From an uncultured Eubacteriales bacterium (GTDB lineage: Bacteria > Acidobacteriota > Aminicenantia > Aminicenantales > Aminicenantaceae): a DNA stretch of 64,000 nt. A program made the position numbers and the translations under genes. Location of the stretch: NCBI GenBank assembly GCA_964347035.1, contig CAYFXE010000003.1:17570-81569 (forward strand), written 5' to 3'. Position 1 is the stretch's first letter; each line of letters begins with the position of its first letter. The notes beneath the pieces were generated by a model. It was given only the letters and a program-made list of their open reading frames with translations, was not told where the DNA came from and made no database searches. Shown here one piece after another: positions 7,464 through 52,401 of this stretch.

Positions 7464-8171
7464 CTATCCCATGAATCGAAGAGTGAGAAGTCCGAGGACG
7501 ATATAGAATATGCTTTTTATGAGCCAAAAGCCGAACGAGATAAACAACGCTTTTTTAAGATCTATTTTAAAAATAAGGGAGAGTGCGTATCCGAAGATGC
7601 CGAAGAGCCAGAGCTGGAAAAAATCGACTTGGCTAAGGACCACATAAGTGGAGGAATTCACCTCTAGATTGGGAAAAAACAGGGCAAGACTGGTCGTGGT
7701 CTGGGCGACAGATTTTCGGGTGAGAATAAGGACTAACCGCACGGCATTGCCCAGAATCTTATCGATAAAATTCGCATGAACATAGGTCGATAGAATCTGT
7801 TTATAGTGCCCTTCTGGAGAAGTGAATCGCCCTATCCCAAGGATGATAAGACTGGAAAACAGGAGACCCACTAGAAAAAAGGCAGGATTTAACAGGAAAG
7901 ACTGAAGGAGAACGCTGATCTGGGAGGGATTCTCCAGTCTTTCGATCATCTGGTTGTACCTTTCTTCTCCCATACGTTCTTTTACTTTGATATTGTCTCT
8001 ATAAAACTCGAGACTGTCATTCCGGGCATAAGGAGAGACGATGTAGGCGAAGACGGCTGACAGGATGAGGAGGATGATGAGGGCATCGATCCAGACAGGT
8101 TTTTCGGAGATGGTTTTGAGGGTCGGCTGGGGATTGAAAAATATGCCCTGGAGACGTGAGAAAAAATTCAC
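7464..8171 (-). CDS. Yip1-family integral membrane protein
   Basis: 235 aa with about 5 predicted TM helices and a Yip1/DUF1282-like layout (N-terminal FFNPQPTLKTISEKPVWIDALIILLI). It starts 4 nt after the ABC ATPase stop. Confidence 0.55.
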   Translation of the reverse strand: MNFFSRLQGIFFNPQPTLKTISEKPVWIDALIILLILSAVFAYIVSPYARNDSLEFYRDNIKVKERMGEERYNQMIERLENPSQISVLLQSFLLNPAFFLVGLLFSSLIILGIGRFTSPEGHYKQILSTYVHANFIDKILGNAVRLVLILTRKSVAQTTTSLALFFPNLEVNSSTYVVLSQVDFFQLWLFGIFGYALSLIFKIDLKKALFISFGFWLIKSIFYIVLGLLTLRFMG

Positions 8172-10093: not shown

Positions 10094-10366
10094 TTTGTTT
10101 CTTTCCTAAGCTAGTTTCAATATCATATTATACTACGTTTCAAAAGGCAAAAGGTTTGAAGGTAAGGTTTGATGGTAAGCATTTTAATCCTTGATAAATA
10201 ACTGGGAACATATCTTTGGGATGGCTTCGCTCTCCTTCAGGTTTTTGACACTGTTTTTCCTCCAGGTTGACTTCCGAAGGCTGGGGTGGATAGGGTCGGT
10301 GCCTTCAATGGTCGCTTCATCCATCCCCAAATATCTTTTCTATCATGGAGAAAAGACACTACCTAT

Positions 10367-11229: not shown

Positions 11230-11802
11230 ATGTTCTGTCATCTAAAAAAAGATTCTTCTGAGCCCAAAGATCGTTGGTGGCATGATGTTTGTCTTGGGGG
11301 GCCTTTACTCCTCCTCACCCTCCTCCTCGTAGTCATATTTTCCTCTTTCCAGGGACAGGAAGGAATAGATAAGGAAGCTGAGGGGGGAGTCCGTCAACTC
11401 ATCGTTGCCGCAAATCAGAGTTGGACCGATACAGGAATTGATGTCGCTGAAGATCTGACCATTTATTTTGAGGCCACAGGTGTCATCTCCCTCCAGAAGG
11501 GAAACCCCATGGCCTATTGTGGGCCCGACGGACTCAGCCTCAGGACTGTCCAACAGCCATTTCCGGATAAGAATATAGGCGCCCTCATCGGCAAGGTGGT
11601 CTTTCTTATCTCAGTAGAGATCGATGAGGAAACCGGGGAAGAAACGCGCAACGAGATAGTTAAGGAGTTCTACATTGGGGAAGAGAATCGAGTCAAAATG
11701 CCTATCAGCGGCCGTCTCTTCTTGGGAATAAACGAGAACGTCGTCGGAGATAACTCCGGGGAATTCAAAGTCTTGCTGCAATTTGGGGTCAGACCTTCCT
11801 AA
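11230..11802 (+). CDS. Membrane-anchored protein with PA-IL (LecA)-like lectin-fold domain
   Basis: N-terminal TM segment (GGPLLLLTLLLVVIFSSF). The pattern W-DTG...A-G...CGPDG...GALIGKV...GRLFLGINENVVGDNSGEFKV resembles PA-IL-like domains. The last five codons and the stop lie inside the left arm of the 31-bp inverted repeat. Confidence 0.45.
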   Translation: MFCHLKKDSSEPKDRWWHDVCLGGPLLLLTLLLVVIFSSFQGQEGIDKEAEGGVRQLIVAANQSWTDTGIDVAEDLTIYFEATGVISLQKGNPMAYCGPDGLSLRTVQQPFPDKNIGALIGKVVFLISVEIDEETGEETRNEIVKEFYIGEENRVKMPISGRLFLGINENVVGDNSGEFKVLLQFGVRPS

Positions 11803-11881
11803 TTTTCATAATGTCCTTCATCGATTATGCGAAGGCATATATCCATAGCTCATTATGAAAATTAGGAAGGTCTGACCCCAA
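11783..11881. terminator. 31-bp perfect inverted repeat between convergent genes (likely bidirectional terminator or palindromic element)
   Basis: Left arm 11783-11813 is TTGGGGTCAGACCTTCCTAATTTTCATAATG. Its exact reverse complement lies at 11851-11881, leaving a 37-nt loop that contains an inner CCTTC/GAAGG stem. The left arm covers the stop of 11230..11802, and the right arm ends 1 nt before the accC stop. Confidence 0.6.
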
Positions 11882-13216
11882 TTAGCTCAGGAAGTCGGTC
11901 ATAAAGTGGATATTGTAGGCACCTTTCCTGAAATTCGAGTTGGAGAGGATATCGATATGGAGAGGGATGTTTGTTTTTATACCGACGACAGTCGTCATCT
12001 CCAGGGCCGCCAGCATTTTCTCGATGGCTTCTTCTCTTCGTGGAGCAATAGCAATGATTTTGGCCACGAGAGAATCGTATTCGGGGGGGATTTCCCAGCC
12101 ACTGTAGGCGGCTGAATCGACTCTGATACCTTGACCAGCAGGCAGGACGAGAAAATCGATCTTCCCTGGAGACGGGATGAATGTTTGTGCGTCCTCTGCG
12201 TTTATCCGGCATTCGAGACTGTGGCCCCTGAACTTTAAATCACTTGGAACGGAAAGCTTTTCTCCCGCAGCAATTTTTATCTGTTCTTTTATGAGGTCGA
12301 TACCGTAGGCCATTTCCGTAATCGGATGTTCGACTTGCACCCTGGTGTTGGCTTCCATGAAATAGTATTTTTTTCTCTCATCGACTAAAAACTCGAATGT
12401 TCCCAAGCTCTGATACCTCACAGAATGAGCCGCCTCCTGAACTGCTTTCATGATCTTTTTTCTTAACTTTTCATCGATATAGGGAGAAGGCGTCTCTTCG
12501 ATTAGCTTTTGGTATTTTCTTTGGATGGAGCATTCTCTTTCACCCAAAGCCAAAACATGTCCTTTCTTATCTCCAACAACTTGAACTTCGATATGACGGG
12601 CCTGGGGAAGGTATTTTTCCATATAAAGGGATGGATCACCGAAGGAAGCCTTGGCTTCGTTTTGTGCGATGGGATACTGCTCTTCCATTTGAACTGAGGA
12701 GCGCACCACCCGCATCCCTTTTCCCCCGCCCCCTGATGAAGCTTTCAGGATGATAGGATAGCCGATTTTTTTAGCTATCTTCTTGGCTTCAGTAAGATCA
12801 TCGATAAGCTCATCGCTTCCTGGAATGACTGGCAATCCCACCTTTCTCATTTCTTGCCTGGCTTTATTTTTATTCCCCATGAGTCTGATCAAAGGAGCGG
12901 GAGGCCCGATGAACGTCATTCCTGAGGTTTCACAAATCTCGGCGAAACGGGCATTCTCTGCTAAAAATCCATACCCAGGATGAACAGCGTCGGCCTTAGT
13001 GATTTCAGCCACACTCATGAGGTTAGGGATGTTGAGATAGCTTTCGGAGGCCTTGGCCGGGCCGATACAGACCTTCTCATCAGCAAACATCGTGTGGAGT
13101 GCATTTTTATCTGCTTCTGAGTAGACCGCGACGGTTTTATACCCGAGTTCCTTGGCGGATCGAATGATGCGCAGTGCGATTTCACCGCGATTAGCAACAA
13201 GAATTTTTGAAAACAT
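11882..13216 (-). CDS. accC: Acetyl-CoA carboxylase, biotin carboxylase subunit
   Basis: Full-length ATP-grasp biotin carboxylase (KILVANRGEIALRIIR, GGGGKGMR, EMNTR-like EANTRVQVEHPITE). Confidence 0.95.
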   Translation of the reverse strand: MFSKILVANRGEIALRIIRSAKELGYKTVAVYSEADKNALHTMFADEKVCIGPAKASESYLNIPNLMSVAEITKADAVHPGYGFLAENARFAEICETSGMTFIGPPAPLIRLMGNKNKARQEMRKVGLPVIPGSDELIDDLTEAKKIAKKIGYPIILKASSGGGGKGMRVVRSSVQMEEQYPIAQNEAKASFGDPSLYMEKYLPQARHIEVQVVGDKKGHVLALGERECSIQRKYQKLIEETPSPYIDEKLRKKIMKAVQEAAHSVRYQSLGTFEFLVDERKKYYFMEANTRVQVEHPITEMAYGIDLIKEQIKIAAGEKLSVPSDLKFRGHSLECRINAEDAQTFIPSPGKIDFLVLPAGQGIRVDSAAYSGWEIPPEYDSLVAKIIAIAPRREEAIEKMLAALEMTTVVGIKTNIPLHIDILSNSNFRKGAYNIHFMTDFLS

Positions 13217-13842: not shown

Positions 13843-13871
13843 TTGACTTCACCTCAAGGTTCGCTTAACAT
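13843..13871 (+). promoter_or_regulatory. Putative sigma70 promoter of ffh (TTGACT-17-TAACAT)
   Basis: -35 box at 13843-13848 and -10 box at 13866-13871. A GAGGA Shine-Dalgarno sequence precedes the ATG at 13903. Confidence 0.4.
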
Positions 13872-15272: not shown

Positions 15273-15400
15273 TCCAAGAAAAAGGGTGATACTTTGGAGA
15301 ACTTCCCCAATTCTGAAGGAAGAGAAGGCGGGGAGCCCGGACGAAATTCGGACGACCGTTAGAAGGGGGAATGCGTAGCGCTCCCCCTGTTACTCCAAGG
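15273..15400 (+). repeat. Copy A of a conserved GC-rich structured intergenic element (core CGACCGTTAGAAGGGGG at 15353-15369)
   Basis: By manual count, 15318-15380 aligns ungapped to 52037-52099 with 53/63 identities. A P1 hairpin forms from TCCAA (15273-15277) and TTGGA (15294-15298). A 3' hairpin has the form GGGGGA-at-GCG-tag-CGC-TCCCCC. The element abuts the rpsP -35 box. Confidence 0.6.
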
Positions 15401-15429
15401 TTGACTTATAGTCGGAATTCGGATATTAT
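15401..15429 (+). promoter_or_regulatory. Putative sigma70 promoter of the rpsP operon (TTGACT-17-TATTAT)
   Basis: -35 box at 15401-15406 and -10 box at 15424-15429 with a 17-nt spacer, 29 nt upstream of the rpsP ATG. Confidence 0.45.
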
Positions 15430-15975: not shown

Positions 15976-15976
15976 C

Positions 15977-16484
15977 TTGGTTAGCATAGGGAGGATTTTA
16001 AGAAGTCAAGGAAGAAAGGGAGAATTAAGGCTCAAGCTTTGCCTGGAGCCTTCGTTCATTCCTTTTTTTTTCTAGGGTCTATCTCCAGAAAAAAGGGATT
16101 CTAAGAGACTATAAGATCGAATCCGTCCGTCCGTATAAGGATAGCTTCATCATCAAATTCAGGGAGATTGAGTCTTTATCAGAAGCCCGGGAGATAGTCG
16201 GAGAAGAGGTCTTTCTTCCTGAAGAGGAATTACAGACCCTTGAGAACGGGTGTTATTACCTCTACCAGCTCATCGGTTGCTCTGTGACCACCAAGAGTGG
16301 AGATAGAATCGGGATTGTCGAAAATATTTTATCGATTTCCGAGTCCGAACTTCTTATCGTTCGAAGTCGCAGGAAGGATATATTAATTCCATTAGTCAGT
16401 GAGATCTGCATCCGGATGAACATCGACAAAAGGGAGATCATCATCGACCCACCCGAGGGCCTTTTAGACTTGAATGAGATTTGA
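15977..16484 (+). pseudogene. rimM: 16S rRNA processing protein RimM, interrupted by a +1-nt frameshift in a T9 run
   Basis: The N-terminal part (TTG 15977, LVSIGRILRSQGRKGELRLKL...) stops at TAG 16073-16075. The remainder (SRVYLQKKG...ENGCYYLYQLIGCSV...[10 protein letters not shown]) continues in another frame to 16484. Removing one T from the run at 16063-16071 gives a continuous RimM. Confidence 0.7.
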
Positions 16485-25041: not shown

Positions 25042-25235
25042 TTTACCTCCTTGTCATGTACCATTGATGGATTTGATGTCTTTTGTAATGGCTAAATTAT
25101 CACGACTCTTTTTTCTTTTCAACAGAGTTAATATCTTTTTTTCTGTGATGAAATGCCAGGAATGTGTATATGGGGATGGCTTAGCTCCCTTTCATATTTT
25201 TAACGCCATTCTACATTTGGCCCTTTTGATTGCTC

Positions 25236-25318
25236 CTGGGGTCAGGCCTTGTCGTCTGGAAGCGCTGCGTCTCTACCTTTACCCGAATACAAAACCTTGG
25301 GATAAGGCCTGACCCCAG
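25236..25318 (+). repeat. 83-nt hairpin element with a 15-bp perfect stem (CTGGGGTCAGGCCTT / AAGGCCTGACCCCAG)
   Basis: Arms at 25236-25250 and 25304-25318. By manual count, 25232-25316 matches the reverse complement of 45739-45823 at 74/85 positions, ungapped. Confidence 0.65.
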
Positions 25319-25380
25319 TTCAGACATACTCGCAAGTCGACTTCCCTCGAAGGCCAACAGCGTTGCGGAGGAACATTGTT

Positions 25381-25489
25381 TGGGGGTACAAGGGAGTATG
25401 CCCCCTTGTTCGCAGGGCAAGGGATCATCCCTCGCCTGAGAAGGGGAGGAAGGGAGTCCGAAGGTATGACGGACGACCGTTGGAAGGGG
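25381..25489 (+). repeat. Copy B of the conserved GC-rich structured element (core CGACCGTTGGAAGGGG at 25474-25489)
   Basis: By manual count, 25435-25489 aligns ungapped to 52033-52087 with 43/55 identities. A P1 hairpin forms from ACAAGGG (25388-25394) and CCCTTGT (25403-25409). P2 is GGC-a-AGGGA-tca-TCCCT-c-GCC. Confidence 0.6.
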
Positions 25490-25495
25490 TAAATT

Positions 25496-25524
25496 TTGAA
25501 TTTTATATTCAATTCGCTTAAAAT
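25496..25524 (+). promoter_or_regulatory. Putative sigma70 promoter (TTGAAT-17-TAAAAT) directly after repeat copy B
   Basis: -35 box at 25496-25501 and -10 box at 25519-25524. The ATG at 25533 lies 8 nt after the -10, so the transcript would be leaderless or nearly so. Confidence 0.4.
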
Positions 25525-45571: not shown

Positions 45572-45739
45572 GTTAGACCAGAGGTATTTATAACATAACA
45601 GGTAAGAAGCGTAAAGCCTAAAAAATGAATATTCCGCCTGATCTTTCTTCCTGATTCCGCAGATAAAAAATTCCATTTGGCGCTTTAGAATCGGGGGGTC
45701 TCACAATACGAACGGTTGGTTTTTCTTACAGATAGACTT

Positions 45740-45820
45740 GGGATTAGGCCTTATCCCAAGGTTTTGTACTTGGGTGAAGTTAAGGACACAGCGCTTCCAG
45801 GCGACAAGGCCTGACCCCAG
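45740..45820 (-). repeat. Inverted, diverged second copy of the 25236-25318 hairpin element
   Basis: The reverse complement of 45739-45823 matches 25232-25316 at 74/85 positions (manual count). One stem arm is degraded (GGGATTAGGCCTT versus GGGGTCAGGCCTT). An inner CCCAAG/CTTGGG stem is present. Confidence 0.6.
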
Positions 45821-45925
45821 CAGCTACGGAGAAGGACGGTGAGGGAATTGCCTGAAAAATCATGAGATATTTCCCTACACCTCGAGATGACAATTATTTA
45901 ATCCCTTATTTTTATTAGGCTGAGT

Positions 45926-51913: not shown

Positions 51914-51976
51914 AGGTTTTCCTCCAATTTGACGATCAGTTGATTTGCTCCACGTCTTGCCTTGGGGAACCGATCG

Positions 51977-52114
51977 TCGGGGGATCCAAAGGGGTATGCC
52001 CTCTTGGTCGCAGGGAGTGGGGTTATGCACTGCCCGAGAAGAGTAGGCAGGGAGGTCGGACGAATTTCGGGCGACCGTTGGAAGGGGGAACGCGAAGCGA
52101 TTCCAGCTCCAGGG
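51977..52114 (+). repeat. Copy C of the conserved GC-rich structured element (core CGACCGTTGGAAGGGGG at 52072-52088)
   Basis: It aligns to copy A (53/63) and copy B (43/55). P1 forms from CCAA (51986-51989) and TTGG (52004-52007). The 3' hairpin is GGAA-CGC-gaa-GCG-a-TTCC. TTGAAT follows at 52115-52120. Confidence 0.6.
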
Positions 52115-52401
52115 TTGAATCTATCTATCCTGGAGATTTTCGCAAAGGCAAAAAATATGAGGGGATTTTGGAGAAAATTATCGTATGGACTCATTGTTAT
52201 TGCCAACAGAAGGAATCTTGGACTTGAAATAGCGGATCTAAGAATAACGGAGACTTGTCTTTAATGCGGGTAATATTTATGATTCCTTCTCTAAAATTAT
52301 TACTTTATAGAAAATAAGTTGAAACAAACTAATAACGAAATTTTATAACAATATGTTCAAAAGTTGTCAAGACATTTACGCTTTCAAAAATTTTTCTGGT
52401 G

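Follow-up and report, generated by a model that had tools for sequence, protein, structure and literature searches.

The 64-kb stretch of DNA analysed here (the window) contains three related sequences, A, B and C, all on its plus strand, which is the G-rich strand at each of the three sites. A repeat search of the window gave 74% identity between B and C over 118 nt and identified a 53-nt block common to all three, in which A was 87% identical to C and 75% identical to B. A 16-nt core (CGACCGTTGGAAGGGG) was the same in B and C and matched at 15 of 16 positions in A, as the first-pass annotation of this DNA had counted. Its count of three plus-strand copies was also confirmed independently using a covariance model of the 3' half of the repeat, trained solely on copies from other contigs. 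This model matched the window only at C, A and B (E values of 2.9e-20, 1.3e-15 and 5.7e-10, respectively), always on the plus strand, and its best match elsewhere in the window had an E value of 0.22. The three copies were placed on the full-length repeat using an nhmmer profile built from 17 full copies, and the features at the three sites, together with one related promoter, are as follows.

13843–13871, plus strand: ffh promoter, TTGACT-17-TAACAT, an unoccupied target in the window (promoter scan)
15319–15406, plus strand: copy A, profile positions 110–192, the 3' 45% of the element (nhmmer; covariance model 62.2 bits, E 1.3e-15), made up of a purine-rich junction, hairpin H4, the core CGACCGTTAGAAGGGG, hairpin H5 and the tail CTCCAAGGTTGACT
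15401–15429, plus strand: rpsP promoter, TTGACT-17-TATTAT (promoter scan, 10 of 12 matches), with its TTGAC formed by the last five bases of copy A
25370–25492, plus strand: copy B, profile positions 38–162 (nhmmer; covariance model E 5.7e-10)
25496–25524, plus strand: promoter of an acyltransferase gene, TTGAAT-17-TAAAAT, native and outside copy B (promoter scan), present also in the related locus L058
51929–51933, plus strand: target pentamer TTGAC directly 5' of copy C, 16 nt upstream of the start codon of a divergent nuoE-like gene
51934–52120, plus strand: copy C, full length (nhmmer 172 bits over profile positions 1–191; alignment)
51931–51978, 51986–52007, 52013–52035, 52055–52071 and 52083–52108, plus strand: hairpins H1, H2, H3, H4 and H5 of copy C (alignment)
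52068–52086, plus strand: core of copy C (alignment)
52115–52120, plus strand: TTGAAT, the terminal hexamer of copy C and the element's own end

The repeat unit proved to be about 190 nt long rather than the 110–130 nt first proposed, and the boundaries of the copies changed accordingly. Copy C together with its target pentamer spans 51929–52120 and starts 48 nt before the position originally assigned, copy B spans 25370–25492, and homology in copy A is confined to 15319–15406. The adjoining bases 15273–15318 are local flank, and the same flank sequence is found before the full copy in the related locus L056. The TCCAA/TTGGA stem and the second hairpin that had been ascribed to A belong to this flank; they are not homologous to the hairpins of B and C and are not covariation. 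The apparent flip of an inner helix from GCG-tag-CGC in A to CGC-gaa-GCG in C amounts to a shift in register by a single base at the H5 tip. Copy B, which is 81% identical to the consensus, retains a remnant of H1 as well as H2, H3, H4 and the core, and is without the 5' end, the 3' hairpin and the tail. Copy C is 87% identical to the consensus and 44 of the 54 pairs in the structural model can still form. The window copies are thus truncated or decayed, with a third to half of the structure missing. Single-sequence folding at the coordinates first given yielded z-scores of –0.2 to –2.2 for the plus strand and did not decide the strand.

The wider family was retrieved by scanning two collections with an exact 19-mer taken from the core pattern (CGGRCGACCGTTRGAAGGG). 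Among 185,579 representative genomes it was found once, in a Candidatus Aminicenantes metagenome-assembled genome. In the metagenomes it was found in 49 stretches, about 35 of which are family members in which the similarity ends abruptly at TTGAC on both sides. Ten of the 49 were false positives, unrelated sequences in which the 19-mer had arisen by chance or formed part of a soil gene. Retrieval by an exact 19-mer biases the sample of copies and is in part responsible for the conservation seen in the core. A BLAST search of plasmid and phage collections with a consensus-like copy gave no match, and a 17-mer scan of viral contigs gave five chance matches, none of which was recognised by the family profile.

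The full unit is a dispersed, non-coding, sharp-ended sequence of about 190 nt with five hairpins, found on about 35 metagenomic Aminicenantes contigs in unrelated contexts. Written with a bracketed flanking pentamer, the consensus reads (TTGAC)GATCGGTTGATATGCCCCGCGGCTTGCCGCGGGGAACCGATCGTCGGGGGATCCAAGGGGGTATGCCCCCTTGGTCGCAGGGCGCGGGTTCATGCCCCGCCCGAGAAGGGGAGGCAGGGAGCCCGGACGAAGTTCGGGCGACCGTTGGAAGGGGGAACGCGAAGCGGTTCCCCCTCCAAG(G)TTGAC. The ends are asymmetric (5' GATCGGTTGATATGCC... and 3' ...CTCCAAG(G)TTGAC) and no terminal inverted repeats were found, the termini GATCGGTTGAT... and ...CTCCAAGGTTGAC not being inverted copies of each other; the two ends do have the direct repeat GGTTGA in common. 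In two independent cases a full copy begins directly after the TTGAC at the 3' end of another copy, giving a tandem arrangement. Several of the metagenomic contigs break inside the element.

A subfamily, represented by the copies in L056 (11394–11591) and L058 (210–435), carries in the centre of the core a clean 16-nt insertion (GAAAACAGAGCTTTAC) that forms a small hairpin (AAAGC/GCTTT), and the pattern-based sample therefore overstates how well the core is conserved. Copy A corresponds to this variant minus the 16-nt insertion, and TAGAAGG is present in both. Other departures from the standard unit were also seen. In the copy shared by L028 and L049 (4114–4323), H2 is expanded by 18 nt and the CTTG loop of H1 is swapped for its complement CAAG, which resembles the flipped hairpin tips of DNA palindromes. 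A 70-nt 'mini' element in L041 (7832–7905) has H1 fused directly to the H5 tail, and is followed (7900–8100) by another repeat with inverted ends (TAATATTAACGCAATAA...) that was found also upstream of ffh in L066.

The five hairpins of the consensus are the following.

H1: 11-bp outer stem around CCCCGCGG-CTTG-CCGCGGGG
H2: CCAAGGGGG-TATG-CCCCCTTGG
H3: a long form and a short form
H4: CCCGGAC-GAA-GTTCGGG
H5: GGGGGAAC-GCGAAGC-GGTTCCCCC

RNAalifold, applied to an alignment that included partial copies, gave only H4 and H5, and the model was therefore set by hand and its pairs counted. In 28 distinct copies, standard pairs were present in 92% of cells, compared with 38–55% in controls with the pairing partner slid along the sequence. 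Compensatory changes were found at 16 pairs against 5.4±2 in shuffled alignments, a value reached in none of 500 shuffles. Three distant copies (L025, L016 and L003) keep H1, H2 and H3 despite a largely different sequence. The consensus-like copy folds into the five-hairpin model with z-scores of –5.8 as DNA and –5.0 as RNA, whereas copy C no longer does so (–0.7). Wobble pairs numbered 93 G-T and 40 A-C, a difference that favours the given strand. The pairing is under selection on this strand, as RNA or as single-stranded DNA. The covarying hairpins of the first-pass annotation were therefore real once about 28 copies from other contigs were compared, but not among the window copies in the form described. 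A candidate long-range helix (GGTCG/CGACC) has a 3' partner that was fixed by the 19-mer retrieval pattern.

With respect to the ends, H1 begins 0–14 nt inside the left end and H5 finishes 12–13 nt before the right end, and the two hairpins (CCCCGCGG/CCGCGGGG and GGGGGAAC/GTTCCCCC) are unlike each other. Three of the loops are of the C-GAA-G or GCGAAGC type, with GCGAAGC and CGAAG recurrent; d(GCGAAGC) is a very stable DNA mini-hairpin.

Thirteen syntenic loci (L056–L068) from related genomes, fetched via homologs of Ffh and NuoE, allowed filled and empty sites to be compared. The Ffh homologs also placed the source of the window in Aminicenantes. The rpsP promoter site is filled in the window by copy A and in L056/L057 by a full copy, includes a relic of about 40 nt in L066, and is empty in L058, L059/L060, L067 and L068. 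The empty site in L059 reads AAAAAAGTTGAC|TTAAAGGAGGAATTCATATATTAT and the filled site in L056 reads AAAAAAAGTTGAC[AATCGG...CTCCAAGGTTGAC]TTATACTCGTAATTCGGATATTAT. Copy A has the same right junction as the copy in L056, with the 5' half of the element deleted. In the empty sites of L058, L059, L067 and L068, GTTGACT, a spacer of 16–17 nt and TAT(A/T)(A/T)T are found in the same place, and the terminal TTGAC of copy A thus takes the place of the native rpsP –35 box, with the spacing to the –10 box unchanged.

The ffh promoter site is filled only in L058 (210–435), where the element lies exactly between the TTGAC and the T of the –35 box (ATTGAC[GATCGG...GAGTTGAC]TTCACG...TAACAT). It is empty in the window and in L056 (ATTGAC|TTCACC...TAACAT in both) as well as in L059, L066, L067 and L068. 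Across seven distinct loci both promoters are conserved, as TTGACT-17-TAACAT for ffh and TTGACT-16/17-TAT(A/T)(A/T)T for rpsP. Site B is empty in L058, which has TTGAAT-17-TAAAAT without the element, and site C is empty in L061–L065, with L063 and L064 reading AATTTCAC|ATTT. In every comparison of a filled with an empty site, the element was directly 3' of a TTGAC-like pentamer, which at ffh and rpsP is the conserved –35 box.

These findings lead us to conclude, with a probability of roughly 0.8, that A, B and C represent three insertions, now decaying, of a single mobile element of about 190 nt that is non-autonomous and non-coding. This element, here named the TTGAC element, occurs in genomes of several Candidatus Aminicenantes and makes up a new family within an already known type of selfish DNA. 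The first-pass annotation had left a choice between a structured RNA and a mobile module; the mobile part stands, given some 35 sharp-ended copies and the filled and empty sites, and nothing shows an RNA product. The reading as a pure RNA gene is also weakened by the MITE-like termini, which that annotation had itself set against it.

The element is inserted directly 3' of a TTGAC-like pentamer, mostly before a T, and where this is a sigma-70 –35 box (TTGACt) a complete –35 box remains, so that the downstream gene may keep its promoter. As the last five bases of the element are TTGAC, the –35 box is made whole again at the native spacing from the –10 box and the insertion should be tolerated. 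The –35 boxes originally noted after A (TTGACT-17-TATTAT) and B (TTGAAT-17-TAAAAT) are indeed there, and they are the key to the insertion mechanism rather than a sign of a leader RNA. The TTGA(C/A)T that follows copy A is the element's own end serving as the rpsP –35 box, the one that follows copy B is a native –35 box since this copy is without its own end, and at copy C the element ends in TTGAAT with no usable –10 box beyond it. Insertion of an element that brings its own TTGAC accounts for the well-spaced promoters after A and B, and for the tendency of the 3' end to point towards a gene read in the same direction.

This tendency was seen in about 20 of 26 distinct loci, with a convergent gene faced in six. 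A bias of this kind is expected if –35 boxes are the main supply of intergenic TTGAC and insertions that keep the promoter are tolerated. Recognisable promoters house only some of the copies, and copy C is not in one. When all copies were considered, –10 boxes were found downstream in 5 of 29 compared with about 1.6 at control offsets, a weak enrichment. GC skew on the strand of the element was positive at 26 loci and negative at nine, a weak and noisy bias that is confounded with gene orientation. The downstream genes, which lie about 50 to 750 nt away, are mutually unrelated and include those for S16, Ffh, an acyltransferase, Lrp and ThiE.

The gene context also bears on whether the element is a cis-regulatory RNA (a leader or riboswitch) or a small RNA gene selected by the host. 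Conserved pairing with compensatory changes and the intergenic locations would fit such a role, as would the absence of the element from Rfam: in Rfam 15 no family matched the window at the gathering threshold, and at E≤10 the best match around A, B, C or the consensus-like copy scored 20.3 bits, far below the gathering scores. However, a host regulatory RNA is unlikely, since the –35 box lies downstream of the element at copies A and B and wherever the ffh or rpsP site is filled, which leaves the element outside the transcripts of those promoters, the downstream genes are unrelated and at widely differing distances, the sites are empty in close relatives, and the window copies have lost much of the structure. 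Moreover, six of the 26 copies face a convergent gene, and copy C is antisense within the likely long leader of the nuoE-like operon. Taken together, these features make selection by the host scarcely credible, and the conservation of pairing in what we regard as a mobile element would instead reflect selection on its own propagation.

Near copy C, one block of the nuoE-lrp intergenic region (52342–52370, minus strand) is conserved in all relatives and has the promoter-like sequence TTGACA-17-TATAAA, directed towards the nuoE-like operon. The leader implied for this operon is about 230 nt in the relatives and about 420 nt in the window, where it is lengthened by the antisense copy C.

The junctions were examined for evidence of the mechanism of transposition. 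Of 20 junctions, 15 had TTGAC as the left pentamer and the other five had a pentamer that differed from it at one base. The base after the right end, which derives from the flank, was T in 18 of 20 copies, indicating TTGAC|T as the preferred target. Among the 20 full-length copies that were tabulated, 11 had TTGAC on either side, and in seven, including all of the five youngest, the two sides differed. These five, the copies nearest to the consensus (97–99%), have TTAAC, TTTAC (twice), CTGAC and TTGAT on the left and always TTGAC on the right. A left pentamer that varies beside a constant right one suggests that the left is target DNA and the right belongs to the element, and speaks against duplication of the target. 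In L067, a divergent copy (11492–11650) is bordered by GTCGAC on either side, an arrangement that would also be compatible with a duplication or with a core shared in recombination.

If the element were a classical DDE-type MITE, with TTGAC as its preferred site and a target duplication of 5 bp, this would account for the L067 copy and for the 11 copies with TTGAC on both sides. Such a MITE is nonetheless very unlikely, as the ends share the direct repeat GGTTGA in place of terminal inverted repeats and the pentamers differ in the five copies nearest to the consensus.

For the TTGAC element, we favour mobilisation in trans by an IS200/IS605-type transposase of the HUH/Y1 class, which acts on single strands by 'peel and paste', in the manner of the gene-less IS200/IS605 derivatives known as PATEs. 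The variable left pentamer, the TTGAC|T target and the tandem insertions are hallmarks of IS200/IS605, and a PATE-like mechanism was taken as the most likely on these grounds, tentatively and at a little under even odds. TTGAC would then be the transposon-adjacent motif, H1 and H5 would be the subterminal hairpins, and excision would be scar-free. The form on which selection for pairing acts would be folded single-stranded DNA, possibly also a guide-RNA scaffold. ISDra2 inserts 3' of TTGAT without a target duplication (PMC8612924), gene-less PATEs are mobilised in trans (PMC10055086), and TTGAC is the predicted adjacent motif (TAM) of a TnpB ortholog (PMC12415229).

Like the PATEs, which derive from IS200/IS605 elements such as ISDra2 (target TTGAT) and IS608 (target TTAC), the TTGAC element is short, non-coding and multicopy. 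As in PATEs, insertion is 3' of a 4–5-nt motif without evident target duplication (with some ambiguity from the L067 copy), the ends are not inverted repeats and the subterminal hairpins are specific to one strand; TTGAC is a single base different from the ISDra2 target. The two subterminal hairpins at the ends of IS608 are alike, whereas the left and right hairpins of the TTGAC element are dissimilar and there are five hairpins rather than two. Also unlike PATEs, the right end repeats the target motif and rebuilds a –35 box, the host phylum is Aminicenantes, and no cognate TnpA or TnpB was found in the ORFs and loci scanned. A Pfam search of 30 ORFs (20 beside copies in the window and other loci, and 10 other large ORFs in the window) revealed no transposase or autonomous copy, and no Y1 transposase or TnpB was present among the called genes of the 13 syntenic loci L056–L068; about 0.5 Mb of sequence was covered in all.

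The main alternative to a PATE-like mechanism is a site-specific recombinase that exchanges strands within TTGAC as a short shared core, which could be an IS110-type DEDD, IS607-type serine or IS91-like rolling-circle enzyme or an integrase. TTGAC at both junctions, the GTCGAC on either side of the divergent L067 copy, asymmetric ends without inverted repeats and the lack of a Y1 transposase among the 30 ORFs scanned are all consistent with such an enzyme. We consider it unlikely, as the youngest copies deviate at the left pentamer while the right is always TTGAC, the geometry of hairpins 14 nt inside the left end and 12–13 nt inside the right resembles that of IS200/IS605, and the nearest known target is the TTGAT of ISDra2 (PMC8612924).

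The structure of the TTGAC element raises the question of whether it is, or also is, a TnpB-type omega RNA (reRNA) scaffold that ends at the right boundary, with the flank as guide, TTGAC as the TAM and TnpB supplied in trans. Five conserved hairpins and conserved unpaired purine-rich segments exceed what a transposase needs at two ends, and the structure stops exactly at the boundary of the element, with a variable flank beyond. Its length of about 190 nt is near that of a reRNA scaffold (about 150 nt plus a 16-nt guide, PMC8612924) and within the 150–200 nt typical of these structured RNAs; the adjacent motif would likewise equal the insertion target. PATEs 'often encode omega RNAs' used in trans (PMC10055086), and the wobble pairs point to the same strand as the putative RNA. 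On the other hand, no tnpB was found beside any copy when the adjacent ORFs were scanned, there is no similarity to any Rfam family, none of the promoters is directed into the element, the truncated window copies show no sign of being selected, and the GCGAAGC-type loops point to DNA hairpins. A role of this kind seems improbable.

A variant of the guide-RNA interpretation is that the element is a free-standing scaffold, with TnpB encoded elsewhere or with a nuclease-dead TldR-like relative that homes to promoters or represses them. As the element always ends at TTGAC, often followed by a spacer and a –10 box, a transcript would carry a promoter-directed guide, and the –35 box of the promoters addressed would serve as the TAM. 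If true, –35 boxes would be the targets of a naturally occurring RNA-guided system, a prospect that we regard as quite remote.

Among other repeats, the TTGAC element has features in common with the Correia elements of Neisseria and with the outward-facing –35 boxes of IS1, IS2, IS30 and IS911, in that a –35 box supplied by an end works with a –10 box in the flank. Those elements have inverted repeats and give rise to new hybrid promoters by chance; the TTGAC element instead lands within a –35 box that is already there and makes it whole again. REP/REPIN and ERIC/BOX-type repeats are similarly GC-rich, hairpin-forming, intergenic and multicopy, but the TTGAC element is much longer than REP, is not a palindromic doublet, and has a defined insertion motif and asymmetric ends.

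In the reading preferred here, what appeared to be a novel structured RNA turns out to be a mobile element, and its association with –35 boxes is explained. A spare TTGAC lets the element occupy the promoters of essential genes (ffh, rpsP) without destroying them, making it a clear example of a bacterial transposable element with promoter boxes as tolerated landing sites. The family also points to a probable TTGAC-specific system of the IS200/IS605 type, possibly with TnpB and a guide RNA, in an uncultured phylum. In practical terms, it flags a repeat that breaks Aminicenantes metagenome assemblies, for which the profile can be used in masking.

Two further repeat families were seen near the copies. 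One, unrelated to the TTGAC element, is found in the window at 11778–11886, 25238–25316 and 45739–45824 and has the inverted termini GGGGTCAG(A/G)CCTT. One of its copies is a near-perfect palindromic unit with 36-nt arms that are 94% complementary. A second copy is found immediately upstream of copy B, with its 86-nt body repeated in inverted orientation 20 kb away (87%). This family is absent at the L058 site, and it looks like a classical MITE. The other, with the terminal inverted repeats GGGGATGGATGAAGCGACC and GGTCGCTTCATCCATCCCC, is found at about 10215–10328 in the window and at 11380–11760 in L067, where the divergent TTGAC element sits within it, after GTCGAC. Fragments of it are also found in the window at about 25172–25200 and 25333–25369, and copy B abuts one of these pieces. 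The intergenic regions that include this family are nests of small mobile elements.

Downstream of copy A, rimM (15976–16473, between khpA and trmD) is in two frames in the window, with the N-terminal part followed by the PRC-barrel part and the switch at a T run. A complete rimM was not called in L056, L058 or L066; it is intact (147 aa) in L059 and L068, and a 127-aa call was made in L067. The split could stem from an error in sequencing the homopolymer, or the gene could be a pseudogene or one with a programmed frameshift.
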